Assembly (NCBI GenBank): GCA_030867685.1
Contig: JAQOWU010000007.1
Location: 62,001 to 126,000 of the forward strand
DNA length: 64,000 nt
DNA from: Wickerhamiella versatilis
Taxonomy: Eukaryota
Direction: 5' to 3'
Below, piece after piece: positions 6,485 to 61,622 of the stretch; position 1 is the stretch's first letter, and each line of letters starts with the position of its first letter. The notes beneath the pieces were generated by a model. That model did no database searches. It saw nothing but the letters and a program-made list of their open reading frames with translations, and was not told the DNA's origin. The translations under genes were made by a program, and so were the position numbers.

Positions 6485-6701
6485 AGTGGGCTATCTTGCG
6501 TTGCCCTGACCAAGCCGGATCTCTACCGAACCGACCCATTCATAGACAACGAAACGAGTCGATGATTATCTTGCATTATCCAACTAAAATAAACATAACC
6601 ATGGGGCTGAGACATAAATCTCTTGTTATTGACTTGTTTTAAATCCCTGCCTAGATGCAAATAGATAGGACTGAGATATCTTGCATTGTCGAACCTGCCA
6701 G
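6485..6701 (+). repeat. Cluster of three dispersed-element copies (6485, 6567, 6673)
   Basis: agtgggctatcttgcgttg; tatcttgcattatccaac; gagatatcttgcattgtcgaacc. Confidence 0.85.
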
Positions 6702-8876: not shown

Positions 8877-8904
8877 TGGGCTATCGTGCATTGTCCAACC
8901 AGTC
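8877..8904 (+). repeat. Dispersed element, near-complete copy abutting the GH51 stop codon
   Basis: TAA(8873-8875)-t-tgggctatcgtgcattgtccaaccagtc. A degenerate copy lies at 9360-9379, just beyond the stop of the next gene. Confidence 0.92.
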
Positions 8905-23983: not shown

Positions 23984-26900
23984 TCAAATTGCCTTAATGA
24001 AAGCGAGTACATCGCTAGGACCAACTACGTCGCCTTCAGAAACAGGAATACTGAGTACCAGGAACTTGCTAGATCCAAGCTGATCTTGATCTTGAACTTG
24101 CACTTCCTCTACGTCCTCGTCACTAGATTCAGCCAAACTCGAGGGAGAGATGTGAATCTCCATTTTCATTGCCTCTAGTATCACGATGCCAGTATCATTT
24201 TCAATAACTTCACCTGCCTTAACCTTTATCTTGAAAACATTCGCAGCCATTCCTCCAGTTATAGGAATCACGTTAGAGTCTTCAGGTGACAAGAGTCCCT
24301 CGTTCTCCTTCTTCGACAATGCTGCTTCCTTCACCTCACTCTCCCACTTAGTAAATGACTCTGCATCTTCATTGGCTAGCTGTAGAGTTGATTTTATTCT
24401 TTGATTGTTTATTTTTTTCGACTCCTTTTCCACCTTCTGGTGGAAAGCAATATATTCGCCAAAATTCAATTCAACCTCTTTGGTCTCAAGCTCAAGTTTA
24501 CCAGATACAAGTAAATTGTTGAGCCGAGTGAGTTCAGCTTCATCGACTTCATAGTACTCGATTTGGTCGAAGTTCGAGAAAAACCACGGCTTGCCTGGTT
24601 TCAAGGTTTTCAAGCTACTAAAAGTGTTCCAGCATAAGTCAGGTAAAGTCATTGCCCATATCATGAATCCACCGGGGCAATCAATTGAGTAGATGGACTG
24701 GCCTACAGAACCACTTCCAATAGCACCCTTTGGCGTAAACGTACGTGGTGGGTTGTATTTTCCTGTCTTGAGCCGCGTACGTGGGTCCAGGTTAACAGTA
24801 AGCGTATTCCCGCAGAAAAAGGAGACAGCAGTGACGATTTGCCTTTGTCCGATTATCATCCTCTTGAAGTCTTCATCTGATTGCAAGTTGTTGGCTTTCT
24901 TGATATAATCAGCATTACTTGGGAGATAAGTTGCATACGGTCTCTGCGAATGCATATATCGCTCCAAGCAATGATCAAGAGCCGAATGCTCAAAAGTGCA
25001 AGGTAGCTTAAAAAGGGTGCTTTTGATGCTTAGATCGTGAGGTGGACTAATAGTCTCCTCCAATCTCTTAATCTTCTCAAGAACGCTATCTCTCGTCACA
25101 ATATTGACATCGAATATTACGCCAACAGCGCCACTGCATGACTCAACACGAATTATCTCTTTGTTGACAGAAGGGTCAAGCATTCTTTCGAGAACTCTTT
25201 GACGGCCACAATTTACCATATCAAATTCTTTGACACCAAAGTCCACAAGGAGCATTCCCTCCCCTGCCTGCCGAATATTGAATTGAGGTATTTCACCATG
25301 TTGGCCACGGTGATACAAAAGACTCTGGAACTTATCTTGAGATAAAACCCCATCACTTTCTAGGGATGGATACGTAGGAAATGGTGCCTCCCCCCTTAGG
25401 GCTATTTCAACAGCTGCGATGAAATCAGTAGCATTCTTATCTAACTCCAAAGCTTGCTCGTATGTCACGGGTCTAAACTTAATTTTTGACCCTACTTGAG
25501 CTTGCCCATTCTTCCACCAATCACATAACGTTGGTACAGCGATGCATGTGAATCCAGATAGCGTTCCCCCATCAACTCCGAAGAGGGCTAGTCCATTTCC
25601 AATCACACTTATACCACATGTAGGGTAAGGATACTCCAGAATATTGCTGGGATGCGAGCCACCATCTCCACCATCTTTACGCGAGAAAACATCAGCCTGC
25701 CCATCTAGTTTGGTGCAGCCACGATTAGAATTGATGTTGACATGATATTCTGTTTCGTAGAACTTCTTCAGTTTATCCATACTGCATATATCTGAGGTAT
25801 CATGTGGACCACTAAGTGTGTGGATTATCCAAGCTTCATTATCATTCTCGAGCTTAGGAGGGATAGCGTAATCAGGAAAATGCATGCAGTGCCGGACATT
25901 TTGGTACTCAGGAGAATAAGAGATACCAAGACAGTCACCCTGCATGATAATTCTGCCCTGATGGCCACCAAGACTCAAGGTTGGGGTGCACGATTTGGAA
26001 CCCAAATAATGCGCAACATCAGGCAGACCACCCTTAATAGCAAGGTATGTACGCGCTCCTGTGCCAGTGGGGGCACCAATTGAAACCAGAGACCCAGCTG
26101 GAACTTCAATGGCGGAGAATGCCGGCGCCTGTTTCTTGTTGATTTTGAAGACGAAGTCGCCGCCAGCTAGACATATAGTTGCAGGGGAGTGGAATTTGAT
26201 TTTTGGCCCTTTCACCGAAATTTCAAGCGCTTCTGTATTTTTATCATTGCCAACTATCATGTTCGCAAGTTGCATATGGAGCGGATCTGCTGCACCACCA
26301 AGAGGTACGCCACCACTGTAGCCTACGCGACCTGGCAAATCCTGAATAGTTGTGTACGCCCCACCCGTGAGAAACTCCATAAGCCTGGGACGAAAGGTAA
26401 AGCTTTTGGCCAAAAACGTCGTTAAGGTACGTCCGATAGCGAATTCGTGGCTCTCTAAAATGGCGATCAAATATTCTTTATTGGTAGAGGGTCCCAAAAT
26501 TGAACTCTTGGTCAACACCTCACCCAATCCCAATCTAGCCTTCTCTCTCATTTCACCCCATACCATATATTTAGCGAGAAGAGGGTCAAAATAAGGCGAT
26601 ATTCTGGATCCTGTGGCAATCCAGTGGTCAACACGCGTCTTGCAATCTGGGGCAACTTTCTCATAAATGTCGACGAGATGAAGGATTCCCGGTGAGGGCT
26701 GAAAGTTCTTGGCAGGATTCTCAGCATAAAGTCTTGCTTCAATTGCATGGCCGTTGGGAATTCCGCTCCCTTGGAACACAGCTAATTCTTGAGTTGGTAT
26801 GCCAGGCTTGCCTCTAGCCTCATAATCAGCCTGAAGCAGCATCATGTAAACAAGGTCTACACCATAAACAAGCTCAGTTATACCATGCTCCACCTGGAGC

Positions 26901-27790
26901 CTTGTGTTCACTTCCAAGAAATAAAATTTAGACGTCTCATCATCAAGAAGAAACTCAACAGTGCCTGCAGATTTATACTTTACAGATGATGCAAGTTTCC
27001 TGGCACTAGCACAAAGTTTTTCACGTAGTTCCATATTTTCACCTACAAAGGGGCTTGGACTTTCTTCAATTACTTTCTGGTGTCGACGCTGGATGCTGCA
27101 CTCACGCTCACCGAATGTGACGACGTCGCCTTGGCCATTTCCAAAAACCTGAACTTCAATATGCCGGCCTGACTGAATATACTTCTCCAAAAAAACACCT
27201 GCATTTTTGAATAGGGTCTGTCCACGTGAAACTACCTCACTGTAAGCACCGGCTAATTCAGACTCATTCCAACAAACTTTGAGACCCATTCCTCCACCTC
27301 CAGCTGTAGACTTCAGCATTATAGGAAAACCAATCTTTTTCGCTAATTCCTGGGCTCTTTGAGGGCTTTCAACCAGTGGAGAGCCAGATAATATGGGAAC
27401 AAAATTCTTTTCAGCAAGTTCACGAGCAATGTGTTTAATTCCGAACTGTTCTATGGTTTCTGATGCTGGTCCTGCAAATATTATACCGGCCTTTGCAATT
27501 GCATTGGCAAATTCACTGTTCTCAGACAAAAATCCGTAACCAGGAACAACTACATCAGCCTTTTGGTCAATTGCTATGTTGACCATTTGGTTAGTATCAA
27601 TATACGCAGCACTACCAACACCATTCAGAAGAACGCTGATATCTGCTTCACCGACATGGGCTGAGCCTGCATCTTCTGGAGAATATACTGAAATGGAAAT
27701 CAGCCCGTGCTCTCTACAGGAACGAATTATTCTCACAGCTATTTCACCGCGATTAGCTATCAGCACTCTCCGAATCTTTTCGAATACCAT
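23984..27790 (-). CDS. lamA: Stand-alone urea carboxylase-like protein (biotin carboxylase + carboxyltransferase + biotin carrier), LamA-like
   Basis: Motifs LIANRGEIA, GGGGMG, RECSIQRRHQK, EVNTRLQVEH and the biotin site EAMKME. There is no N-terminal amidase domain, and the gene is divergent from LamB. Confidence 0.85.
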   Translation of the reverse strand: MVFEKIRRVLIANRGEIAVRIIRSCREHGLISISVYSPEDAGSAHVGEADISVLLNGVGSAAYIDTNQMVNIAIDQKADVVVPGYGFLSENSEFANAIAKAGIIFAGPASETIEQFGIKHIARELAEKNFVPILSGSPLVESPQRAQELAKKIGFPIMLKSTAGGGGMGLKVCWNESELAGAYSEVVSRGQTLFKNAGVFLEKYIQSGRHIEVQVFGNGQGDVVTFGERECSIQRRHQKVIEESPSPFVGENMELREKLCASARKLASSVKYKSAGTVEFLLDDETSKFYFLEVNTRLQVEHGITELVYGVDLVYMMLLQADYEARGKPGIPTQELAVFQGSGIPNGHAIEARLYAENPAKNFQPSPGILHLVDIYEKVAPDCKTRVDHWIATGSRISPYFDPLLAKYMVWGEMREKARLGLGEVLTKSSILGPSTNKEYLIAILESHEFAIGRTLTTFLAKSFTFRPRLMEFLTGGAYTTIQDLPGRVGYSGGVPLGGAADPLHMQLANMIVGNDKNTEALEISVKGPKIKFHSPATICLAGGDFVFKINKKQAPAFSAIEVPAGSLVSIGAPTGTGARTYLAIKGGLPDVAHYLGSKSCTPTLSLGGHQGRIIMQGDCLGISYSPEYQNVRHCMHFPDYAIPPKLENDNEAWIIHTLSGPHDTSDICSMDKLKKFYETEYHVNINSNRGCTKLDGQADVFSRKDGGDGGSHPSNILEYPYPTCGISVIGNGLALFGVDGGTLSGFTCIAVPTLCDWWKNGQAQVGSKIKFRPVTYEQALELDKNATDFIAAVEIALRGEAPFPTYPSLESDGVLSQDKFQSLLYHRGQHGEIPQFNIRQAGEGMLLVDFGVKEFDMVNCGRQRVLERMLDPSVNKEIIRVESCSGAVGVIFDVNIVTRDSVLEKIKRLEETISPPHDLSIKSTLFKLPCTFEHSALDHCLERYMHSQRPYATYLPSNADYIKKANNLQSDEDFKRMIIGQRQIVTAVSFFCGNTLTVNLDPRTRLKTGKYNPPRTFTPKGAIGSGSVGQSIYSIDCPGGFMIWAMTLPDLCWNTFSSLKTLKPGKPWFFSNFDQIEYYEVDEAELTRLNNLLVSGKLELETKEVELNFGEYIAFHQKVEKESKKINNQRIKSTLQLANEDAESFTKWESEVKEAALSKKENEGLLSPEDSNVIPITGGMAANVFKIKVKAGEVIENDTGIVILEAMKMEIHISPSSLAESSDEDVEEVQVQDQDQLGSSKFLVLSIPVSEGDVVGPSDVLAFIKAI

Positions 27791-27898
27791 GCGCAGATAA
27801 TAAATTAGTTGTCAAATAAATTCAGTGATATAGTATTGTACTTAAGGAATTATTTGCTTATAAAGTTTGAACGTTATCTCCTATCGCGCCACAACGGT

Positions 27899-27945
27899 AG
27901 ATGACTGAGCTCCGCAGATGACTGAGCTCCGCAGATTGCTCCGCA
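27899..27945 (+). promoter_or_regulatory. 17-bp tandem repeat (AGATGACTGAGCTCCGC x2 plus a partial copy) in the lamA/lamB divergent promoter
   Basis: Seen directly. Contains three TCCGCA (CGG-type) motifs and two TGACTGA motifs. Confidence 0.7.
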
Positions 27946-28022
27946 TTACAAATACTTTTTGTAGTTATATATTAGCTTCAGGGCTCTCTAAACAAATATT
28001 TATCAAGTTCAACTATCGGAAT

Positions 28023-28853
28023 ATGTTTACGAAGAATGCTAACTCTCATATTGCGCCTCAACTCGCTGGAAGCGCAGAAGACAACGTGCTAATTCCAAAT
28101 CATGAGCTTAATTGCGACATGGGTGAGGCTTTTGGCCCATGGAAAATGGGACCCGACGAGGAGCTTATGCCAATTATTGACGCGGCTAATATCGCCTGTG
28201 GTGGTCATGCTGGTGATCCTCAGACTATGCTTAAGACTGTACGTCTGGCTAAGAGGCATGGTGTGCGTGTAGGGGCACACCCAGGATTACCTGATCCTCT
28301 TGGTTTCGGTCGTCGCCGCTGGTCCTTGTCACCTGAAGAAGTTTTCACTCTAATTCTCTACCAAGTAGGAGCGCTTCAGGGTATAGCTCGAGCGGAGGAC
28401 GTCGAGGTTTCATATATAAAGCCCCATGGTGAGCTTTATTTTTATATAGAAAGAGATGACGAAATTATGAAGGCTGCTTTGAGAGCCGCTAAGACACTCG
28501 GGCTTCCCGTCATGGGTGGAAAGAGCAAACGCTATCTTGAAATGGCCCATGAGTTTGGCGTAAAGTTCATTCAAGAAGCTTACGCTGACCTAAACTATAC
28601 GCCATTTGGGGCCCTAATAAAGCCACCTTCAGAGCCTAAGTTTCGAAAGACACCTGAGGTCATCTCAAACTTCGTATTACGAGCGGGAGAGGCTGATCAA
28701 GCAGTGGATACTGAAGGAAATATCATTGACCTCAACTTTGATGGGGCTCACATCACATTTTGTCTTCATTCGGACATCCCAGGTGTACTTGAAAACGCCA
28801 CAGCAGCGAGGAAAGCTATCGATACTATTAATAAGAGAAAATATGGAGTATAA
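28023..28853 (+). CDS. lamB: LamB/YcsF (PxpA-like) lactam utilization protein
   Basis: Motifs LNCDMGE, ANIACGGHAGDP, GAHPGLPD..GFGRR, YIKPHG and CLHSD. The probable start is ATG 28023. Confidence 0.92.
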   Translation: MFTKNANSHIAPQLAGSAEDNVLIPNHELNCDMGEAFGPWKMGPDEELMPIIDAANIACGGHAGDPQTMLKTVRLAKRHGVRVGAHPGLPDPLGFGRRRWSLSPEEVFTLILYQVGALQGIARAEDVEVSYIKPHGELYFYIERDDEIMKAALRAAKTLGLPVMGGKSKRYLEMAHEFGVKFIQEAYADLNYTPFGALIKPPSEPKFRKTPEVISNFVLRAGEADQAVDTEGNIIDLNFDGAHITFCLHSDIPGVLENATAARKAIDTINKRKYGV

Positions 28854-29094
28854 TTTACTAGTAAACTAAATGTTCCACTTTAAAAACCAACACCGCTTAT
28901 CGTCAGTTAATTTTATACAATTGCAGATTTATATACTCTTGTTGACACCATTGCCCACATATCTCTGAATCTTGGCATAAAATGGAGCAAATTGGAGAGA
29001 GAGGGTAAAGTAAAACCACCTAGGTTGTCTATAGACCTTAGTTGATTAATAACGATAGATAAGTAGCTAAGTAGCGGAGTCAAATTAGACGTTG

Positions 29095-29110
29095 GTGGCT
29101 ATCTTGCGTT
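29095..29110 (+). repeat. Dispersed element, left arm plus core
   Basis: gtggctatcttgcgtt, upstream of the tautomerase. Confidence 0.7.
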
Positions 29111-29226
29111 TGCTTACGTGTCAGATAAGTGCGGAGCGGAGGCCCTCCGTATGGATCTATAAGCGTGTCCGCACGAAAACATTAAAGAGAGTGGGAGTCC
29201 TGAATCCTCTTTTAACTAAAAGAAAA

Positions 29227-29454
29227 ATGCCTCACGTCATAGTTAAGGCTATAGAGGGTAAGTCGAAGGAGCAGCTCAAAGGGCTGGTGGATGGCATAAC
29301 CAAAGCTTTTGTTGACCAAGGAATAGGTGCAAAAGCTGTGACCGTACGCTTAGAAGAGTTTCCTCGAGAGCAATGGATGGAGAAGGTTTACCATGTTGAT
29401 GTTGAACATGGACCAGGTCAACTGATGAAAGGCCCAGAATATGATAGCGTCTAA
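29227..29454 (+). CDS. 4-oxalocrotonate tautomerase family (PptA-like), 75 aa, bacterial-type
   Basis: Starting at ATG 29227 gives M-PHVIVK, with the catalytic Pro-1. Also GKSxEQ, EE..W.EKVY..D and K.P.Y at the end. Confidence 0.85.
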   Translation: MPHVIVKAIEGKSKEQLKGLVDGITKAFVDQGIGAKAVTVRLEEFPREQWMEKVYHVDVEHGPGQLMKGPEYDSV

Positions 29455-29494
29455 AACAGAACCGTACAACTTTCTATAGATTTCCTACCTTAGA

Positions 29495-31327
29495 TTAACA
29501 TCGATGAGCAAAGAGCATATCGGAAAGTAAGTCATTTATGCTTTGAAATTCCAATTCTGGACTGGTGACTTCGATGTTCTCTTCATACTCCGCATATTGT
29601 TGCTCTGGTTGTGGTACATCTTCTTTTTCATGATCTTGGGAATTCATCGACTTTTTTAGTGATTTCACAAGGTCTTGAAATTTTGAATAGTCATAAAATT
29701 TCCGTCTTTCCATCAGCGTAACTAGATTGTATGCCGTATTGACGGTATCCGTAATTTCTTTCGTCTCGAAGTTCTGCGACACTAATACAATTGCCTTCAA
29801 TGCTTTATCAACAAGGGTGATTGACTTTTTGCTGTCAATTATTAGTAACATGCAAAGCAATTGAAATGGAAGATTGGCGACGTGCCACCAGGGAATCTGA
29901 TTTCGTGCGAAGTCACAGCATGCGTCGAGCCCGGACACTGCGACGTTCAGTAAAAGAGGCGTGATATCATTCACAAATGAATACTTAAGCGAGTATAGTC
30001 TTCGGAAGAAAATGATCGCTAGATAGCTCCTTTCCAAGGATAGATGCTGGTTAGATGGAATGTATTTCTCCAAGATCCTGATTCCATGTGAAATATCCTT
30101 AGCTCCGGAATTAGGAACCAGGGTTGATTCTGTTATCCTATAGAGTTCCAAATATTCGTGAATGCAGTCGTTAGCATCATTTTTGTTATCGGGGTAACGC
30201 GACCTGATGGTATTGTGCTGAACTTCCGGGAGACCAAGCTCTATAGAAGTCATGTAATTCAAAGATTTTAAATACCAAAAAACTCTTCTCGACATATCCT
30301 GCTCATATCCAGGCTTCCACCTAGACTCAGTCGGAAGGCCTACTAGCTCTGCATACTGTAGCGCCTGTGAGCTAGTCATCCACATGGCAGATGGATTAGC
30401 TGCAGCCCTTAAATACACTAAGTAAAGTATCCAAGCCTGTAAATAGCGAAGAGTGTTCAGATTATTGCTTTTCAGGCCAGAACTTGATACCCGATACAAC
30501 CTTAATTCGACTGTATGAATTAATAAACGCTCCAATTCTCGTCGATCAACTATTGAAGGGACTATTTGCTTTCCTCGGGAGAAAAGTGAGCCGAGTGCGA
30601 TTACCCCAAAAATAACCAACTGGAAGCCGTCCCCATACTCAAATGGCTGGTCGCTGTAGACAAGGGCAAGTTTCTCCGTATATGATTTCTTGTCAACAAT
30701 AGAGTAGATTGGGTGCACTATGTCGAAAAAGCTTAAAGAAAGGCGCTCAGTATGGGCTTGAGATAGGACTTTTTTAATGTCTACCAAGCGGAACATCTGA
30801 CGGTCATCCGTTAGACCCAGGTTCCAAGCACGTCCATGAATAGAAATGTTCTCCCCTACCTCCTGTGATATCCAGTTTGTGAAAACATTTCCTCGTGAAG
30901 AATTCTTCAAATGATCCTCGGGAGTGGCATAACGGGGTGCGAGACTGGAGCGCTCAGCTATATCCTCATTTGAAATGACCTTGCTCATTGGTTCCATACA
31001 ATTTTCGTTATATTGCAGAAGACTATTGTCCGATTCTGAATCTTGATGGCGATTGCTCTGGACATATAGTTTTGCATAACTTTTTAATGGACGTCGAGAG
31101 ACATCTGACACTTGTTTATGCGGGAACGGGAGACTTGCCTGATTTTCATGACTACCCTTAGCTCCCAGTGTACTGGATGCCTCGTAGGTACAATTTCGCG
31201 AGTACTTTCTACAAGTCTCACAAGGCATAAGTCCATTACACTTTCTCTTACTGCGTCGACATGGATGACAAGCCTGCTGGACTACTTCTCTAGGACGCTT
31301 TTTCAATGGACCAAAATTCTCATTCAT
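29495..31327 (-). CDS. Zn2Cys6 fungal transcription factor with a Fungal_trans domain
   Basis: ACHPCRRSKRKCNGLMPCETCRKYSRNCTY; also FFDIVHP and RRVFW. Confidence 0.92.
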   Translation of the reverse strand: MNENFGPLKKRPREVVQQACHPCRRSKRKCNGLMPCETCRKYSRNCTYEASSTLGAKGSHENQASLPFPHKQVSDVSRRPLKSYAKLYVQSNRHQDSESDNSLLQYNENCMEPMSKVISNEDIAERSSLAPRYATPEDHLKNSSRGNVFTNWISQEVGENISIHGRAWNLGLTDDRQMFRLVDIKKVLSQAHTERLSLSFFDIVHPIYSIVDKKSYTEKLALVYSDQPFEYGDGFQLVIFGVIALGSLFSRGKQIVPSIVDRRELERLLIHTVELRLYRVSSSGLKSNNLNTLRYLQAWILYLVYLRAAANPSAMWMTSSQALQYAELVGLPTESRWKPGYEQDMSRRVFWYLKSLNYMTSIELGLPEVQHNTIRSRYPDNKNDANDCIHEYLELYRITESTLVPNSGAKDISHGIRILEKYIPSNQHLSLERSYLAIIFFRRLYSLKYSFVNDITPLLLNVAVSGLDACCDFARNQIPWWHVANLPFQLLCMLLIIDSKKSITLVDKALKAIVLVSQNFETKEITDTVNTAYNLVTLMERRKFYDYSKFQDLVKSLKKSMNSQDHEKEDVPQPEQQYAEYEENIEVTSPELEFQSINDLLSDMLFAHRC

Positions 31328-36924: not shown

Positions 36925-36966
36925 GCGACAAGACCAGTGGACTATCTTGCATTGTCCAACCAGTCT
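36925..36966 (+). repeat. Dispersed element, extended 42-bp copy
   Basis: gcgacaagaccagtggactatcttgcattgtccaaccagtct, 16 bp from the siderophore transporter stop codon. Confidence 0.95.
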
Positions 36967-39578: not shown

Positions 39579-39620
39579 GCGACAAGACCAGTGGGCTATC
39601 TCGCGTTATCGAACCAGTCT
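39579..39620 (+). repeat. Dispersed element, extended 42-bp copy
   Basis: 37/42 identical to 36925-36966 (counted by hand). Confidence 0.93.
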
Positions 39621-40925
39621 AAGGTAGTTCCGCATTGCGGCGATAAATATATTGATCATTTCGATTTCCATGGGCATGGGCAATGTTGGGTTATTACATA
39701 ACTTCGGCCGGCGAATTTTATTCCCGAAATTTGTTAACGCCAGGGTAGTCATCAATCGAGAGTACTTATAACCCAAGAATTACTTCTATTTCATGGCAGT
39801 CTATAAAAGTCCATCTGAACTCAGTTCACAAATTAGCTCTCCCTAGTATATTTTTATTCATTTCACGGTTCCTGGCAGCCTACAGGGCGCTGTGATAGCA
39901 AACCTTCAACTTGACCCTAACCACAGGGCTCATCACATTATCACCTGAGGGCATGAAGTTACCATATCAAAAGACCCTGTGATCTTAATGGCAGTGTGAA
40001 GCCGAAACCAAGATGAAATTGTTCATGGATATTACTTGCTAGAGGTGCGTTAGGTAAGAAAAATGAATTTGAGTATACAGAGATTCTAGAGAACGTGCAT
40101 GATGTTTCTAAGCGAGGAGGTTTAAGACAGATCAGACCATGGACCTTTCAGGCAGCGAATATTCAAATTAATATTTCATTAGCAGTAAGTTCCTACGCTT
40201 TTTGGCTCATTTAATTGCATTAAAACTAGCCTGTCCAGGCTCTACCTAGACGACTACTACCCAACATTGATAGAATTTGGCCTCTGCTTCTTGCATCCTG
40301 TGCTTGGTAGTATGCTAGGGCCGCAGTCAACGAGAGATATTTAAATTAGAAGTTCAAAGATATGTGAAAATCAGCTGAATTTTAACGTCGAGTATAAAGA
40401 ATGTGACATTACCGACCTTCGGGACTTTCGTCTCGAAATTGCACGATTTCGCCTTGTGCCTATTCATATAAGCATTTAGTCGTTCGCTGCGCTCATATAG
40501 CTGGTGTGTTGGCAAAAAAGTGAGTATAGCAGTGAATTTGTTGATGCAGGAATGCATTATTTGGTTTCTGTTTCACTGGTATGTCTAACAGTGTCAATAC
40601 CTACTTGTTAGATATTAACCCAGACTAAAGCACATCCTCAACTTCTGCGGCGAATAATCTTACATGCTATCTTTTTTGGAGCAGCATACTTGGGCTATAT
40701 CACGCCAATGATGAACAGAATTGGTATAGGCTGAACGTTTACTTTATTCTGCTTTTGACACTCAGTGTACCCCATTGATAAACTCTCAGTTTAAATATGG
40801 GTAGCTTTGGCGTAACAGGCGAGTTTTGAAGTGTGAGCCTGCAATTTCTGCAAACTGAGGCAAAACTGACTCTAGAAAATGAGGATATTCAGAGCTATTA
40901 TATTCCATCCTGTGTAATGTTTTGC

Positions 40926-40956
40926 AGTGGGCTACCTTGCATTGTCTAACCAGTCT
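40926..40956 (+). repeat. Dispersed element, complete copy
   Basis: agtgggctaccttgcattgtctaaccagtct. Confidence 0.95.
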
Positions 40957-41015
40957 CGTAGAAAAAAAACAGAGGTGTTGTAACTAATTCAGATCTATTT
41001 TACACTAAATTCTAA

Positions 41016-42518
41016 CTAATCCACATATCCATATTCATGAAAACTATTGAGGATTTGAGATTTTAATGATTCCGGATACGAATGCTCAAAGGAAGCTGCT
41101 GACGCTCTCATTTCACCCTTGAACTGCTCGGGAAAAAGGCAGTTTATAATCATGTTCCCCCCTTTTCCTGACGCAAGATCGTCACCATTAAGGTAGGGTA
41201 CAAGTGGAAAAGTGCCAATATCCGGATAGCTGATAAAGTCATGCTTTGGATGTGCCCGACTGGCTAGGGTCCATACCACCTGGTCTATATTGGTGATGTC
41301 AATATCATTACCCACGATAATAACCTTCGGCACCAGATTGCCAGCATGGGTTTTGAAATGAACTTGAGCCACTCGGTCTGCGAACTCTTTTGCATTGGTA
41401 TTCAATTTGGCTAGTTGCGCGACATCGACCGATATAACAACCCAGCAAGCAACCGCTTCGTATGAACACCAAGCCATGTCCACTGGTAGTCCTCCCTTTT
41501 GAAGGTCTTCAAGTACCTGTGCCGAAATCATAGTACACCAAATGGTATGATTTTCTTCAGCGGGTAGCCCAGCGACACAGATGGGTAGGATAGGGTTATT
41601 TCGAAACGTCACCGCATTGACGTTAAAAACAGGCTGCACGTGGCCTTCAGTATGTTGATAGCCATGGTATTCTCCCATAGGTCCCTCTACCGCGGTTTCG
41701 TGCATTGAAATTTCTCCTTCAAGCACGATCTCAGCATTCTCAGGTACCCATAGATTGTTTGTTTCAGCCTGAGCAACCTTAAGTGGCTGTCCTAACAAAG
41801 CTCCTATATATCCTGGCTCACTCACCCGGGCTGGAAGGGGCATTCCTGAAACAGCTATAGCAGCGGGTGCGGCACCAAGCGCAAAGGCCCAAGGAGTTGG
41901 CTTGCCTTCGCGAGTCCACATGTCTCTTATCATACCAATATGCTGAGTGGGAATTGTAGGCCCTGTGAGTTTGTTGTGGTCAACTAGCATCATGCGCCCA
42001 ATGCTCCAACTGTCCCAGGTCTGATCAGGCGATTGAACTATATGGAAGCCGTAAGTACCAAGGTAGCGACCTCCATCTTTCTCATGTAAAAAAGGGATAG
42101 GGAGCCGGTTGAGATCCACTTCGTCTCCCACCCACTTGTTTTCCTTTACAGGACCCGTTTTGACTCTAACGGGGTCAATAGGTGGTGCCTTCATGGCATC
42201 ACGAATACAAGCAATCAACTCGTGCGGCCGGGTATTTTCAGGCAGGCCGAAATGCAACGCTAGGCGACTATACTCGCGTGATTTATCCTTCAGCATACCA
42301 GCCGGTGCGCCCAGTATACGAGAACCAGGCAGAGCATCCCTGATGTTACTGAATAGAGGAGCCGGCAGCCGCTGCTCGTATACTCTTCTGCAAACTGCAG
42401 CAACTTCAAGATATGAGTCCACTTCCTTTCTCACATCAACCAAGTCGTTTCTACTGCGTAATTCATTCAGAAACGCACGAAAATCAAGCGCCTTGTCGAT
42501 CAGTTTCTTATTCGACAT
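41016..42518 (-). CDS. UbiD-family prFMN-dependent decarboxylase, HudA/PA0254 (pyrrole-2-carboxylate decarboxylase)-like
   Basis: Motifs LHEKDGGRY, WSIGR, EIVLEG and EGPMGEYHGY. From memory, the whole sequence resembles Pseudomonas HudA more than yeast Fdc1. Confidence 0.9.
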   Translation of the reverse strand: MSNKKLIDKALDFRAFLNELRSRNDLVDVRKEVDSYLEVAAVCRRVYEQRLPAPLFSNIRDALPGSRILGAPAGMLKDKSREYSRLALHFGLPENTRPHELIACIRDAMKAPPIDPVRVKTGPVKENKWVGDEVDLNRLPIPFLHEKDGGRYLGTYGFHIVQSPDQTWDSWSIGRMMLVDHNKLTGPTIPTQHIGMIRDMWTREGKPTPWAFALGAAPAAIAVSGMPLPARVSEPGYIGALLGQPLKVAQAETNNLWVPENAEIVLEGEISMHETAVEGPMGEYHGYQHTEGHVQPVFNVNAVTFRNNPILPICVAGLPAEENHTIWCTMISAQVLEDLQKGGLPVDMAWCSYEAVACWVVISVDVAQLAKLNTNAKEFADRVAQVHFKTHAGNLVPKVIIVGNDIDITNIDQVVWTLASRAHPKHDFISYPDIGTFPLVPYLNGDDLASGKGGNMIINCLFPEQFKGEMRASAASFEHSYPESLKSQILNSFHEYGYVD

Positions 42519-42583
42519 TCAATTAATAATCACGTAACGGCAATGAGCAGTACCTCAGCCGTTTTATAGTACAGGCAAATCCA

Positions 42584-42614
42584 AGACTGGTTGGACAATG
42601 CAAGATAGCCCACT
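42584..42614 (-). repeat. Dispersed element, complete consensus copy, followed by a partial second copy (42625-42670)
   Basis: agactggttggacaatgcaagatagcccact. Confidence 0.95.
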
Positions 42615-43625
42615 TCACTACCCGAGACTGGTTGGATTTATTTGCGATCGAACCACTTATTCTCCTAAAGGTGTATAATTCTCTATGTCGGGATCGGGTA
42701 GGCGTTGCCGAAAGTTGATTTATAATCCAACGCAACGTATTGATCCATTAAAATGTAGGTATGTTCGTTTGCCCCTAGCAGTGTTCAGCGATGCGATACT
42801 CAATAGTAAATAGATAGATAATATACGATTATGTCTCGCAATATCTAAGTCGTGAGTATAGCATTAAGTGGTCGACCAGATTATGTTGTAGATAAAGCTA
42901 ACGGGATAATAGGATGCTTATAAACAAATGTATTGGCATAAACAGAACTTGAGCCTTCACATATGCCTCTGAATAGAATAGTGATCTGTAGATTCTGGTG
43001 TCTAGCATCGCCCAGCCGATCCTAAATTAGGTTGTCTTACGTCATTCAGCAAATCACCTCTTAGGTTATCTAGCATTTCTCAGCAAATCAGATTTCATAG
43101 ATTTCATATCAGACATTCCGGAGACATGTACTGAGAGAACTGGTGAAGCACGCTTAGCTCTTGATAAACAGTACTATCTATTGCTAGCATTTATTAACAG
43201 TATGAGTCAATTCCATTGTTGTACCTGAGGCTGCTAGCCTAACCTGGACACTAAGGTGGCTTATACCGGCCCCAGAAACATTCTCCAAGTAACATCTTCA
43301 CTCCATCCATTGATTCAGCTAAGCACCGAGCCGTAGGAATGCTGGCATGTAATTCAGGTATTGTAGTAACAACTTACTTCATAAGCAGAGCGTACAAGAG
43401 GAACAAAATGTCTCAAAGTGAATTTATTTTTGCAGACCCTGTGGTTGACTTTCCTAATGGGCTCCCTGTAGGACCTCGGAGCACAGGCTTTGTGCTGAGG
43501 CTAGTTGACGCTGTTTTTCTACTAGTTGTTTGACCTGATGTGACACCACTTCGTAATAGACGTCATAATTGCAATTAACGAAAGAAGGCTACCCTGGATT
43601 GTCATTATTATTAATTTTATTTCAG

Positions 43626-51986: not shown

Positions 51987-52016
51987 GGCTGGTTGGACAA
52001 TGCAAAATAGCCCACT
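51987..52016 (-). repeat. Dispersed element, complete copy
   Basis: ggctggttggacaatgcaaaatagcccact. Confidence 0.93.
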
Positions 52017-52808
52017 TACTCCTGGGTATATTTTCCGAGTAATCTCGAGAACAAGGGGGTATCAACAATTTCGGATGACTGATATTCTCTCTAATTCCCA
52101 TTTTCGTAGTATGACATGCAATGCAATGCAGTGAACATGCTCAATTGCTTTACACCAGCTAGGTCACTCATTGGAGTGCCTGTTACTACTTCAATACTGC
52201 CAATATAAGTGATGTTTCCACCCTTCCCTGGTTTCATTAGCTCGCCTGCATGTTTTGTACCAAAGTATACGCTATCTTGTCGAAGCTCATGCTAGATCAG
52301 ACAGTAGATGGTTGATTCAGGCCGCCTGAGTTGTATAAGATAAGATACTTCCTCGCTATGCCTTCAGGAAGATTATGCAATACATAGAAAGGGCATTACT
52401 ATCACTCCGAATTCATAGCTACTGCTTACACATATCATGCAACCGAAATGAGACAGTTGGGATGGAATTTGCATTATTCAGCGGTATTGTATTATTCAGA
52501 AGTAGCTGAGATGACGCCCATGAGCTTAGTTTCAAGGTCTTTGTTGGGCTAAAACCGGAAGAATTTGGGGATATTATAGAGTGGTAGGCTTTATTTTTTG
52601 ATTGAAATGCTAAAGTCACTTGCTAGGCCGTGATATTGACCAATATCATGGCCATGAAGACGTAATTGTCTGACTATAACAAAGATCGCCGCTCGGAACG
52701 TTGTCGTTTGAGAAGTAATACAGATGTCGATCTGCATACCACCCTAACCTAAACTCCTTCCTTAATAAAACGTCCTTGGACACCCACTTTACACCACCTA
52801 TTCGTATA

Positions 52809-55353: not shown

Positions 55354-56919
55354 TTAAACTTTTTCATCGTAAATAAGACTTTTTCTGGATACGATCTTGT
55401 CGAGCGCTTCCTCTAGCATATTCCAAGGAATCACTTTGATTTCCCTCACTATATTTCGGGGTCGAGGTGGAGGAAAATTCATGATTAAACTGAAAAAGTC
55501 ACCATGATCAGGATTTTGTCTTGATATTGTCACAGGATTGAAAATATCTAAATTCCTTCTTGTGCGATTTTTCTCTTCAATATCAAGTTTGCGATTGAGA
55601 ATGAATTCAAGAAAGTTTATGTAGTCTGTAGTCGTGAAATAGAAACACTGCTTTGATCGATAAAAAATACAGGATATTGTGGCCATTCCTGGAGCCCATT
55701 CTTCAATTTGAATAGGTCTGAATCTTAGTATTATTTCAAAATCATGTTGCTCACGGGTAAACCAGAGAATTCTGCGACCCTCTAGAAACTCTTTGGTGGT
55801 CCACCACTGAACTACCGAGGCCAAGTCTCCCTCTAAATGTAAATACACCGCTTTTTCGTCGTATAAAGGTGATCTGTAGACGAGACAATACCTGGATACA
55901 ATCTTTCTGAGAGCTTCCTCTAGCATATTCCAAGGAATCACCTTAATTTCCCTCATTATATTCCGTGGTCGAGGCGGACGAAAACCCATGATTAGTCTAA
56001 AAAAATCACCGTGATCAAGATTGTGTTCCGAAATTGTCATAGGCTTGAATACTTGTAAGTTCCTTCTTATCCGGTTCTTCTCTTCAATGTTTAGTTTGCG
56101 ATCGAAAATAAATTCAAGAAGACCGATACAGTCTGTTGTTGTGACGTAATATCTTTGACTCAATCGATCAAAAATGCAGGAGACTGCAACCATATCTGGA
56201 GCCCACTCTTCTGGTTGAATAAATTTAAACCGCAACAGCACCCTTAAAGAATTTCGTTCACGGGTGAAACAAAGAATTCTGCGACTTTCAAAGATCTCAT
56301 TTGCTGTCCACAAATATGTAGCCCAACTCAAATTCCCTTCCACATGTAGATGAATCGGTTTACATAGTTTATTATGAAGAGAATTGCCCAGATATTGACG
56401 CTCTGTTAGAATAGCATCCGTAAGTTGCGCAAATCTTGGACTTCTTCGGCACACGCATAGTATGGATTTACTGTAGGCTCGATGATAACTTCCACTAGCT
56501 ATTTGGGAAGAGGTTGGAGTGGTGGATTCCATTATGGAATTTACTGGAACCTGTGAACTGAGATCCTGACGAGGGTTATTTCGTATCATTGGATTCACTT
56601 CTGAATGGAAATCATCTTGACCTAAAGTCAAAGAGCCTGCCGTATTTCCTATTCCAATATCGGGCAAATGGCTAACATCTGGCTCTTGGTTCACATAAGG
56701 CTGATTTTGCAGGAATGAATTGGGAGGTATGCTTGTTGGCACGTCATCAGACAGGTAGCAAGAAGCTAATTCCACCAGAGTTTCCTTCAATTCTGCTACT
56801 CGATCAGTATGCCACTGAGGATACTGTGGTTGACCCATGCTCTTTACTGGCTTGTGCTGAGGAGAAAATGTAAGGGGAGACGTGCAGCGCGGGGGTTGTC
56901 TAACTTCTTCATCTGCCAT
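55354..56919 (-). CDS. Protein with two tandem Medusa(MedA)-type / DUF7082 domains
   Basis: The block SCIF...YxTTTD..LLEFI..EEKNR.RRNL..F.P.TIS...FF.LIM.F.PPRPRNI.REIKVIPW occurs twice, with a DNA period of 507 bp. Confidence 0.8.
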   Translation of the reverse strand: MADEEVRQPPRCTSPLTFSPQHKPVKSMGQPQYPQWHTDRVAELKETLVELASCYLSDDVPTSIPPNSFLQNQPYVNQEPDVSHLPDIGIGNTAGSLTLGQDDFHSEVNPMIRNNPRQDLSSQVPVNSIMESTTPTSSQIASGSYHRAYSKSILCVCRRSPRFAQLTDAILTERQYLGNSLHNKLCKPIHLHVEGNLSWATYLWTANEIFESRRILCFTRERNSLRVLLRFKFIQPEEWAPDMVAVSCIFDRLSQRYYVTTTDCIGLLEFIFDRKLNIEEKNRIRRNLQVFKPMTISEHNLDHGDFFRLIMGFRPPRPRNIMREIKVIPWNMLEEALRKIVSRYCLVYRSPLYDEKAVYLHLEGDLASVVQWWTTKEFLEGRRILWFTREQHDFEIILRFRPIQIEEWAPGMATISCIFYRSKQCFYFTTTDYINFLEFILNRKLDIEEKNRTRRNLDIFNPVTISRQNPDHGDFFSLIMNFPPPRPRNIVREIKVIPWNMLEEALDKIVSRKSLIYDEKV

Positions 56920-59273: not shown

Positions 59274-61622
59274 TTAGTCGTCATATTTATATTGGTACCC
59301 TGGGTGATCACTTGGTAAGTGATCGTGACCGAAAACCTGCCCCCTCGCGGTTGAAGTATTTGCATAATCATAATGAAATAATCCTCGTTGTTGAAGTTCA
59401 GGAATTAGCAGGTCCACAATATCTTCATATGTACCCGGTGATGTGATATGGGCAAAATTGAATCCGTCCAAATCTGACTCTAACGCCCAACGTTCAAGTC
59501 TGTCGGCTACTGTTTTTGGACTACCAATAAGCTTTCTACTAAATCCACCAAGAACCAGCTCCCTTGCTATGTCAGATTTGGTCCACTTCCGAGAATTGTT
59601 GATATCGAGCAAGGTTGACTGAATAGCGGGTGGTCCTTCAAAGCGAAAATCGTCATTATCACCATACTGTGATAAATCGTAGCCTGTCCAGCCGCCAAAT
59701 AGTGTCAAGGCACCTTCGATATCTGCATAGCTTAGATACTCCTCATATTTCTCTCTGGCTTTTGCATCCGTTTCTGCTAAAGTTACTACAACGCTGGCCA
59801 CAATTTTGATTTGATAGGCCCCACGACCTTGCTCCACAGCCTGCTTTCTGAGTGACGCTACCGTTTCAGCAGTTTTTTCGGGGTTAAATCCCCGAATGAA
59901 AATTAACTCACTGTGCTTGGTACCAAAAGAACTTCCCTTCCTTGAAGTTCCCGCCTGGAAAAGTAAAGGGGTACGCTGAGGTGATGGTTCATGTATATGT
60001 ACACCATCGACTTTGTAGTACTTAGATTCGTGATGAATAGGTTTTACTTTTTTCACATCAGCAAAAACTCCATGTTCTTTGTCACGAAGTATCGCATCGT
60101 CCTTCCAGCTAGATTCCCATAGTTTGTAGCATACTTCAAGAAACTCTTCCGCTTTGACATAACGTTCATCATGATCAATTTGAGTATGCAGCCCGAACAT
60201 ATATGCTGCACTGTCTAAAACTGATGTCACAATGTTCCACCCTATTCTTCCGTCGGTTAGATGGTCTAAAGTTGAAAATCTGCGAGCTACAGTATACGGA
60301 TGCTCATATGTGGTACTAGTAGTCACACCAAAAGCAAGATGTTTCGTAACACTGGCCATGGCTGAGATAGAAAGAGAAGGATCACCTACCGGAAATTGCG
60401 TACCTGTCGCTACAGCCGGATCGACATTTCCTGGCCCCCGATAAACATCACTAGGTCCTAAAGAATCAGCGATAAAAACAGCGTGGAATTTACCTCGTTC
60501 AAGTAGCCTTGCGAGCTTTATCCAATAGCTTGACTTGTTGTAGTCTGACGTCTCGCTTGACGGATCTCTCCACATACCTGGAGATAGATGGTTTGGTGTA
60601 CTCATAACGAAAGCATTCAAAATGAGATTTTTTTTCCGATGATTGCTTTTAGACTCATCTAGTCGTTCTGTGTCAGCTTGGCTTGTATAGCTTGAATTGG
60701 GTAAGTTCTGATCCAGGTGATTTCTTATGTCGATCGCATCTGAATCATACTCTGCTGATAGAGGATGGGGTTTAATGCTCTTGACAAGGTGAGGATTCGA
60801 TAAAAAGTATTCTCTAAAGGCAATAAGAGCATTTGGGTCGACAGCTAGAGCCTTTGATCCTGCTTCGGGAGACAAGTTCTCATCCCTAATGAGTACACCG
60901 CTCCAAACCTTACGCACAAAATCCCAATTACTAGCTCTTATGCCAGGTTTTACCAGGCGAATGTAAGCGATCCCTCTCCCCCTCTTCTGATTAAGCTCCT
61001 GCAAAGCTAAAAAGTAAGAATAGATTGGAATGGGGCCATATGAATATGATCTTTCCCAAGGGCTCAGGCTTACACCCACCTTAGAACGTCCAATACTTTT
61101 TGAGAGTGCATCAACGACTTCATTTAGTAGTCTCACTTTATTTTCGATGATGCTACCATAGGCATCTTTCCGATTGTTGCTGTCCTCAAAAAATAGATGA
61201 AGCAGAGTTTTGTCCTCCCCACCAATTTCTACACCGTCAAATCCTACCTCTATAGCAGTACTGGCTGCCTGAACATACCCTCGAACAATTTCGCCTATAT
61301 TCTTCGTGGAAATTTTTTTGATGCCTTGGTCGAAGGTGTATTCATCGCTTAGCCAAAGCTGTAAATATATAAATGACCTTAATTGGTGTACTTTTTCGAC
61401 GACATCCTTCCAATGATTAATTTCATCATTGTTTTTCGTCGCCCCGTCAACATTGGGGATGTTCAACCTTACAATCAGCAATGTTCCTGGTACCTCTACT
61501 CTCTGTGTATACCACTCCGCATTCAATTCATTAGGAACCACAATGTCGTTCTGAAGTGGCGGTACCACAATTCGATGTCGCAAGTCTATGTCACCAACTT
61601 CGATGGGCTCAAAGAGTGACAT
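59274..61622 (-). CDS. Fusion of a degenerate Old Yellow Enzyme domain with an NtaA/DszA/DmoA-family FMNH2-dependent monooxygenase
   Basis: N-terminal LFEPIEVGD..L.HRIV, GFDGVEI and RKDAYG..ENKVR. C-terminal LLERGKFHAVFIAD, ARRFSTLDHLTDGRIGWNIVT and PSPQRTPLLFQAGTS. Confidence 0.88.
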   Translation of the reverse strand: MSLFEPIEVGDIDLRHRIVVPPLQNDIVVPNELNAEWYTQRVEVPGTLLIVRLNIPNVDGATKNNDEINHWKDVVEKVHQLRSFIYLQLWLSDEYTFDQGIKKISTKNIGEIVRGYVQAASTAIEVGFDGVEIGGEDKTLLHLFFEDSNNRKDAYGSIIENKVRLLNEVVDALSKSIGRSKVGVSLSPWERSYSYGPIPIYSYFLALQELNQKRGRGIAYIRLVKPGIRASNWDFVRKVWSGVLIRDENLSPEAGSKALAVDPNALIAFREYFLSNPHLVKSIKPHPLSAEYDSDAIDIRNHLDQNLPNSSYTSQADTERLDESKSNHRKKNLILNAFVMSTPNHLSPGMWRDPSSETSDYNKSSYWIKLARLLERGKFHAVFIADSLGPSDVYRGPGNVDPAVATGTQFPVGDPSLSISAMASVTKHLAFGVTTSTTYEHPYTVARRFSTLDHLTDGRIGWNIVTSVLDSAAYMFGLHTQIDHDERYVKAEEFLEVCYKLWESSWKDDAILRDKEHGVFADVKKVKPIHHESKYYKVDGVHIHEPSPQRTPLLFQAGTSRKGSSFGTKHSELIFIRGFNPEKTAETVASLRKQAVEQGRGAYQIKIVASVVVTLAETDAKAREKYEEYLSYADIEGALTLFGGWTGYDLSQYGDNDDFRFEGPPAIQSTLLDINNSRKWTKSDIARELVLGGFSRKLIGSPKTVADRLERWALESDLDGFNFAHITSPGTYEDIVDLLIPELQQRGLFHYDYANTSTARGQVFGHDHLPSDHPGYQYKYDD

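Follow-up and report, generated by a model that had tools for sequence, protein, structure and literature searches.

Pieces of a 41-bp chromosome-end repeat bracket a bacterial-type ubiD gene in an end region of Wickerhamiella versatilis

The ubiD gene and its bracket

A ubiD gene in a chromosome-end region of the yeast W. versatilis is enclosed by two short elements that are inverted and nearly identical, and this raises the question of what these elements are and how the gene came to lie between them. The window analyzed here, i.e., the whole stretch of 64,000 nucleotides corresponding to C7:62001-126000, is an intron-poor yeast chromosome-end region, and the searches covered the assembly to which it belongs (9.88 Mb, 8 contigs). 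The original prediction described the locus as a recent, minimal cassette with a bacterial gene, possibly invertible and comparable to pdif modules. The features of the locus are the following:

40926..40957, minus strand: left patch, 32 nt of a 41-bp unit (registers 6 to 37), with 2 mismatches to the terminal array of contig C4
40958..41015, no strand: 3' flank of ubiD, 58 bp, unique and without bacterial homology
41016..42518, minus strand: HudA-clade UbiD decarboxylase CDS, 500 aa, intact, with the Pfam domains UbiD_N/UbiD/UbiD_C
42530..42537, minus strand: bZIP-like octamer 19 nt upstream of the ATG, a candidate core-promoter element of the host, with a putative function
42563..42568, minus strand: TATAAA box, 50 nt upstream of the ATG and inside the bracket
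42584..42636, plus strand: right patch, 53 nt or 1.3 units, from register 7 via 37 to register 18 of a second unit

The alignment of 40926-40956 (plus strand) with the reverse complement of 42584-42614 confirmed that 29 of 31 positions are identical (2 differences), and the ORF at 41016-42518 confirmed the gaps of 59 and 65 bp between these elements and the ends of the CDS. The right element, which forms part of the inverted repeat, is longer than first noted, since it extends to 42636, and it shows 1 mismatch to the terminal array. The outward strand of both patches points away from ubiD, which in the right patch is opposite to the majority orientation of the arm, and the left patch ends at the commonest stop register of the copies described below. 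No target duplication or other repeat was found at the flanks of the unit. Three weak profile matches with a spacing of 34 bp are located just past the right patch (42992-43090). The idea that the bracket leaves hardly any room for a promoter had to be abandoned, as the TATAAA box (-50) and the bZIP-like octamer (-19) both lie within it.

UbiD is encoded by a single copy in the assembly (one genome match). Its best matches are two proteins at 77%, followed by clusters from Pluralibacter, Pantoea, and Klebsiella at 72%. It shares 63% identity over its full length with HudA (PA0254), a pyrrole-2-carboxylate decarboxylase from Pseudomonas aeruginosa (PMC7976604), and scores 762 bits to PA0254 compared with 433 bits or less to Fdc1-like entries. 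In the FastTree phylogeny, the protein is placed among Enterobacterales, in a clade that includes Rouxiella, Klebsiella, Pantoea, Pluralibacter, and Yokenella (support 0.99 with 39 proteins and 0.95 with 38 proteins), and Fdc1 from Fusarium (42%) belongs to a separate clade. Judging from these sequence comparisons, ubiD is an enterobacterial gene of the HudA clade and not an Fdc1 gene, in agreement with the resemblance to HudA first noticed. Depending on the source of the two proteins at 77%, there may have been an intermediate host between the bacterial donor and the yeast.

The comparison with the structures of PA0254/HudA (PDB 4IP2, 7ABN) revealed that UbiD keeps six of the seven active-site residues (equivalents of E278, Y279, E316, N318, W322, and F432), having Leu in place of M434. 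These residues and the clade suggest that the enzyme is probably a prFMN-dependent decarboxylase of heteroaromatic, pyrrole-2-carboxylate-type substrates, which would receive its prFMN from an unlinked PAD1. In fact, none of the 25 window ORFs scanned matched the UbiX/Pad1 family, as first noted for the window; for the genome this absence does not hold, since a PAD1-type gene is present on C8 (a 230-aa ORF above the TIGR00421 cut-off), with its best named matches (55-61%) among fungi and Bacillota. The reference strain of W. versatilis is described as having one UbiD-family gene, labelled as Pezizomycotina-derived, beside KRE6 on the PAD1-bearing end and weakly expressed (0.7-6.3 TPM) (PMC13376923). 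In the assembly studied here, the 1.19 kb upstream of the corresponding KRE6 contain no ORF of 60 aa, and the only UbiD is the one at the present locus.

Of the cassette first proposed, the apparent gene-sized unit with an element at each junction is supported, and the recent bacterial origin is not: the closest relatives are at 72-77%, the GC3 of ubiD (0.44) resembles that of its neighbours (0.35-0.55), and the comparison to 12 bacterial loci gave no bacterial homology outside the CDS. The relatives of UbiD within its cluster, which are assumed to come from yeasts, differ at 8, 24, and 33 of 500 residues. Since the patches carry only 2 mismatches in 32 nt and 1 in 53 nt while these assumed yeast relatives differ at up to 33 of 500 residues, the bracket appears to be younger than the transfer. 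The metagenome scan did not reveal a yeast copy of the ubiD locus among the 27 loci listed, the best of them reaching 70%. As a case of horizontal acquisition the gene is unexceptional, and the pairing of a bacterial UbiD with an unlinked PAD1 gives it a modest interest.

The 41-bp repeat and its copies

The unit from which both patches derive forms perfect head-to-tail arrays that extend, with the same polarity, to the terminal base of C4 (11.4 units) and of C1 (5.5 units). Among the contig ends examined, only these two have a terminal array, and it is not proven that contig ends correspond to chromosome ends. Internal arrays of 12 and 3.4 units are located 3.1 kb inside C8 and 1.8 kb inside C7, respectively. 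The C4 array (L002 5960-6696) starts 280 bp past another patch, inside a short-chain dehydrogenase (SDR) ORF that becomes truncated at about codon 59, and because it begins mid-ORF it looks like a newly added telomere. The right end of C7 (L005 6509-9609) and the left end of C8 (L001 91-3635) have 3.1 kb in common at 99.9%; on C7 this block adjoins a single 50-nt pass and on C8 the 12-unit array, and register 37 is the end point in both cases.

The genome encodes an intact TERT, a 766-aa ORF with the domains PF12009 and PF00078, for which the search returned no named relative from yeasts. The outward strand of the unit is not G-rich, containing 9 G and 11 C among its 41 bases. The terminal tracts published for W. 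versatilis measure 410, 329, 410, 206, and 121 bp (PMC13376923, Supplementary Data 12), and all except that of 121 bp correspond to n x 41 or n x 41 + 1, i.e., four of five. The tract lengths of two other species fit shorter units, namely 30 bp for all 4 tracts of W. domercqiae and 20 bp for all 4 of S. bombicola. We conclude that the 41-bp repeat is the chromosome-end repeat of this yeast; the terminal arrays are observed, and it would be telomerase that synthesizes them.

The profile search found 21 copies of the element in the window, compared with 0-2 in each of 20 shuffles, and a 24-mer of the element gave 175 genome matches with at most 3 mismatches, its reversed-pattern control giving none. 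The ubiD elements are not a private pair, they are two among about 20 copies in the window. Four others are the following:

8877..8904, minus strand: patch of registers 8 to 35 abutting the stop codon of an arabinofuranosidase-like gene
36936..36966, minus strand: nearby patch covering registers 7 to 37, with the stop of an MFS gene at a distance of 16 bp
39590..39628, minus strand: nearby patch belonging to this family, from register 40 to 37
51989..52017, plus strand: inward-pointing patch, register 10 to 38

Past the stop register, the patches at 36925-36966 and 39579-39620 have 11 non-telomeric bases in common, flanking the MFS transporter gene as if a single junction had been duplicated around it. 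The inverted patches at 1191-1209 and 6677-6695 carry identical variant bases, which suggests that one of them arose as a copy of the other during an inversion or duplication. Other observations in the window concern its genes: a single ORF (59274-61622) fuses an old-yellow-enzyme-like domain to a bacterial luciferase-like monooxygenase; the ORF at 55354-56919 has two DUF7082 domains that originate from an internal duplication of 507 bp; and urea-carboxylase-like, LamB/YcsF, and Zn-cluster genes form a three-gene block (23984-31327) with no strong patch inside. The pxpA gene in the reference table (PMC13376923) has neighbours other than those of this block.

A register-aware scan of 648 kb of end-proximal DNA (both ends of C7, C4, C5, and the left end of C8) and three 50-kb interior samples detected 192 copies in the end DNA vs none in the 150 kb of interior sample; low-density interior copies exist elsewhere in the genome. 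The same scan found no copies in three shuffles of the C7 left stretch. Across 260 kb from the end, the density drops from 17 to 0-1 copies per 20 kb, and only 3 of the 192 copies lie inside ORFs. Most copies point outward on the three arms tested (44/62, 52/70, and 15/17). Whereas the starts of the copies are spread over the registers, 58 of the 86 copies extending to register 37 have their end within one base of it (register 37-38), compared with 7% or less at registers 8-28. Such a fixed stop register suggests that the copies are single telomerase passes which ended at the template boundary.

Target-site duplications of at least 5 bp were found at 4 of 188 patches (null mean 6.1), without overall enrichment, and were discarded as a general signature. 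Few of them are expected if most patches join unrelated pieces. The tightly bracketed genes (35 proteins scanned) are of bacterial as well as of fungal type and, thus, brackets are no peculiarity of bacterial genes. A 570-aa gene that has no NCBIfam match (L069 5225-7075; C7:2555 kb) has the same inverted bracket as ubiD, even tighter (47 + 55 bp).

Junctions and the search for a telomerase RNA

Two junctions are informative about the way in which the patches arose. At C8:309256, a perfect 50-mer is flanked on both sides by a 7-bp direct repeat, the final 3 bases of which match the unit in register; one contig of run X20 skips 53 nt at this position and retains a single 7-bp repeat. This filled/empty evidence comes from a single contig of a run that may be RNA, and could also reflect an artefact or a later deletion. 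No such skipping joint appeared in run X24 at this site. At the ubiD site itself we saw no empty allele. The second junction is provided by a bacterial CurA gene on C5, which carries a patch at each end, where its 94% match to a paralogue on C7 stops; the C7 paralogue has no patches at those points. The CurA junction also has 3 bases in register with the unit, hence both informative junctions, only two cases, show a 3-nt in-register microhomology. More generally, a patch is located at 24 of 62 ends of dispersed duplicates, or at 16 of 54 when 4 rows overlapping arrays are subtracted, compared with about 6% expected, the rows being not all independent. Another patch follows entH, with which the bacterial enterobactin cluster ends, at a distance of 72 bp (L161 5569-5608; C1:805.6 kb).

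Ku70/80 are present in the genome. Some end-joining genes, e.g., XRS2 and NEJ1, have been reported as absent from Wickerhamiella/Starmerella (W/S) yeasts (PMC12629084), and we speculate that, with end-joining genes missing, breaks may stay accessible to telomerase.

No telomerase RNA was identified in the assembly, and the Rfam search gave no match. The assembly contains only three perfect single copies of the full unit and, since all of them look like junction scars, the telomerase template is a postulated one. The 50-mer at C8:309256 (the unit plus 9 nt, in a 1.35-kb ORF-free gap), which was the best candidate, was considered improbable as a telomerase RNA on account of the X20 contig without the element and of the 7-bp flanking repeats. 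The copy at C7:2636508 was rejected as the junction of a duplicated segment, and that at C7:2634272 because of its 6-bp flanking repeats. The C8 gap shows low unstranded RNA depth over approximately L019 2430-3150, and the X20 skip could be a reverse-transcription artefact; no RNA datasets were listed with the candidate C8 gap. That region, located between the genes for glycogen phosphorylase and yapsin, combines the low unstranded depth of X24 with a matching X20 contig block and could be a non-coding RNA. Moreover, X24 has loose ends at L019 2762 and 2807, where well-covered RNA reads hold the repeat with two unique flanks that were not found in the assembly. These reads may represent strain-specific patches in transcripts, or else a telomerase RNA missing from the assembly.

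Origin of the bracket and comparison with known systems

With the stop register, the polarity, and the junctions described above, we consider a telomerase origin of the bracketing elements highly probable. In the mechanism that we propose, a broken 3' end with a few matching bases would serve telomerase as a primer, the enzyme would copy its template once or slightly more, and it would halt at the template boundary; the extended end, rather than becoming a mature telomere, would then be connected with other DNA. As for ubiD, the best explanation, and a probable one, is that the domesticated gene moved as a fragment of about 1.6 kb, both ends of which were extended by telomerase before joining. 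Both 3' ends of the 1.63-kb piece 40958-42583 may have served as primers, since each patch is directed away from ubiD, with its start at register 6 (left) or 7 (right); once extended outward, the piece would have been joined into the left end region of C7. The gene would have come from an enterobacterium earlier, having already acquired a yeast promoter, and the bracket would most likely record a later move within the yeast genome rather than the first entry.

It could also be that each patch was laid down on a different occasion, by stepwise end healing and capture plus an inversion, the inverted bracket being a coincidence in a dense field of scars. This possibility, which we regard as doubtful, has the telomerase origin in common with the best explanation, and only the timing differs. 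Among the 67 single-gene units between adjacent patches, 13 are inverted like ubiD, 47 are direct, and 7 face inward, with no enrichment of inverted brackets: about 13 of 67 are expected from independent copies with an outward bias of 71-74%, so that the orientation of the ubiD bracket is unremarkable. The two patches also differ in length and in number of mismatches, and the unit lacks a flanking target duplication. However, the ubiD bracket is the third tightest of the 67 units when ranked by the larger gap, and few patches in the window are as well preserved as its two.

Another reading places the capping at the first entry, i.e., a free linear bacterial fragment would have been capped by telomerase at both ends in the nucleus and then integrated at this site. 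The two patches do point outward from nearly the same start register (6 and 7), which is what a linear molecule with two ends would show; tight brackets also surround other bacterial genes (CurA and a PRK08642 reductase), and there is the patch past entH, where the ent operon ends. We find this reading unlikely, nevertheless, because the fragment has no bacterial homology beyond the CDS in 12 bacterial loci and includes a TATA box, the closest relatives (72-77%) are distant and GC3 is ameliorated, the patches look younger than the divergence of the protein within its cluster, and fungal-type genes are bracketed too.

The copies might have been kept for another reason, as sites for telomere-binding proteins or transcription factors, in which case they would be relay silencers or promoter elements responsible for the weak expression in the long end domains. 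Nearly all copies are intergenic and graded from the ends, and the end domains are unusually long and weakly expressed (PMC13376923), as such a function would predict; yet the avoidance of ORFs is expected anyway from selection against disruption. In addition, mismatches are spread over all positions of the unit (2-18%), with no markedly conserved position, and copies are denser in convergent gaps (0.87/kb) than in divergent ones (0.52/kb), which argues against an origin as protein-binding sites and led us to reject a promoter-element origin. We hold this reading for improbable, and a binding role could be a secondary effect rather than the origin of the copies.

The unit could also be a subtelomeric satellite or a repeat maintained by recombination, with copies pasted from the arrays by polymerase template switching and no participation of telomerase. 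The failure to find a telomerase RNA would fit, as would a unit that is not G-rich and exceeds the range of 5-30 nt quoted for telomeric motifs (PMC10100673). The copying of tandem DNA arrays, on the contrary, gives no reason for one stop register or for the polarity towards the ends, and the intact TERT and the array that starts mid-gene on C4 make this reading quite improbable.

The view of the elements as site-specific recombination sites (pdif, FRT, or lox-like) and of ubiD as an invertible or mobile cassette can practically be dismissed in spite of their inverted, near-identical, and tight arrangement and of an imperfect 8-bp dyad around 5 bp in the unit (6/8 pairs), since the elements correspond to segments of the terminal array in circular permutation, with 5' ends that vary, no fixed length, and no conserved core, their inverted orientation is not enriched, the XerC/XerD arms match at most 8/11 near them, and PF00589 gave 0 matches in the genome in a search that detected 14/14 controls but was confined to this family (not Flp-type or DUF3435 recombinases) and to an assembly that may be incomplete. 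The pdif modules, in which inversely oriented short sites flank one gene, are bacterial and have fixed 28-bp two-arm sites that need XerC/D. The yeast elements are unlike them in being permuted pieces of variable length that show none of these features.

Our results suggest that telomerase also patches joints when genes, including foreign ones, move into the end regions. The interest of the locus lies in a genome-wide mechanism, ubiD being one example of a genome-wide pattern. Tentatively, and with considerable doubt, this could be extended to a telomerase with a record template of more than 41 nt that works as a routine adaptor for joining ends and that in this way brought hundreds of bacterial and fungal genes into W/S-clade genomes and reshuffles them there, the ubiD unit having been capped at both ends and integrated. 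The long telomeric unit makes the junction scars readable, as they report the primed end, the stop of synthesis, and the relative age, and through them a role of telomerase in gene capture becomes testable. The route of entry of foreign DNA into the most transfer-rich yeasts is an open question (PMC13376923). Our literature search found no paper on telomeric repeats and telomerase in Starmerella, nor on telomerase-linked horizontal gene transfer.

The closest parallel to the patches are the short interstitial telomeric sequences inserted by telomerase at mammalian double-strand breaks (Nergadze et al., 2007; PMC2246262). As far as described there, these are also short telomeric tracts at repaired breaks, with empty orthologous sites, in-register microhomology, and target duplication in a minority of loci only. 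In contrast to mammals, the unit here is 41 bp long and most scars are shorter than one unit, which makes the fixed stop register visible; the end regions contain about one copy per 3 kb; and the scars mostly join unrelated gene-sized blocks instead of being simple break fills.

Telomere internalisation and sequence capture at failed ends have been described in Pyricularia (Rahnama et al., 2021; PMC8381367), where, in the account available, internal telomeric tracts resemble ours in their subterminal enrichment, mostly outward orientation, association with duplicated segments, and lack of target duplications. Unlike those of Pyricularia, the pieces found here look like single-pass products and not eroded arrays, many captured blocks consist of one gene, which in several cases is bacterial, and no MoTeR-like retrotransposon came to notice.

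The long telomeric repeats of budding yeasts, such as those of K. lactis (25 bp) and Tetrapisispora (28 bp) (PMC12134996, PMC8211666), are similarly homogeneous, differ from TTAGGG, and form perfect tandem arrays in the presence of TERT. The unit of W. versatilis has an outward strand that is not G-rich and a postulated template and, if made by telomerase, it would exceed by 13 bp the longest telomerase repeat found (28 bp, PMC8211666); the available parts of PMC12449055, PMC10767889, and PMC13148404 mention no longer yeast telomeric unit. At the level of the enzyme, the yeast UbiD, whose activity is predicted, differs from HudA of Pseudomonas in the Leu at the position of M434 and in the unlinked PAD1.

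Finally, the genome fits the "End" domains rich in foreign genes that have been described in the W/S clade (Brito et al., 2026; PMC13376923). It shares with them the ent operon, reported there as a mark of the Wickerhamiella/Starmerella clade and present here as an entF/C/E/A/H cluster on C1, the PAD1-glucosidase-MFS (TPO1) order of the W. versatilis table, and tract lengths that fit 41 bp; the datasets that contain its sequence come from food fermentations. That study states that the mechanism of incorporation of foreign DNA is outside its scope, and neither the motif nor its interstitial copies appear in its available text and 15 supplement files, although the large supplementary PDF and three other files may print them. 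From the mammalian and Pyricularia systems, the pattern found here differs in the length of the unit, the density of its copies, and the partitioning of a transfer-rich region into gene-sized blocks.
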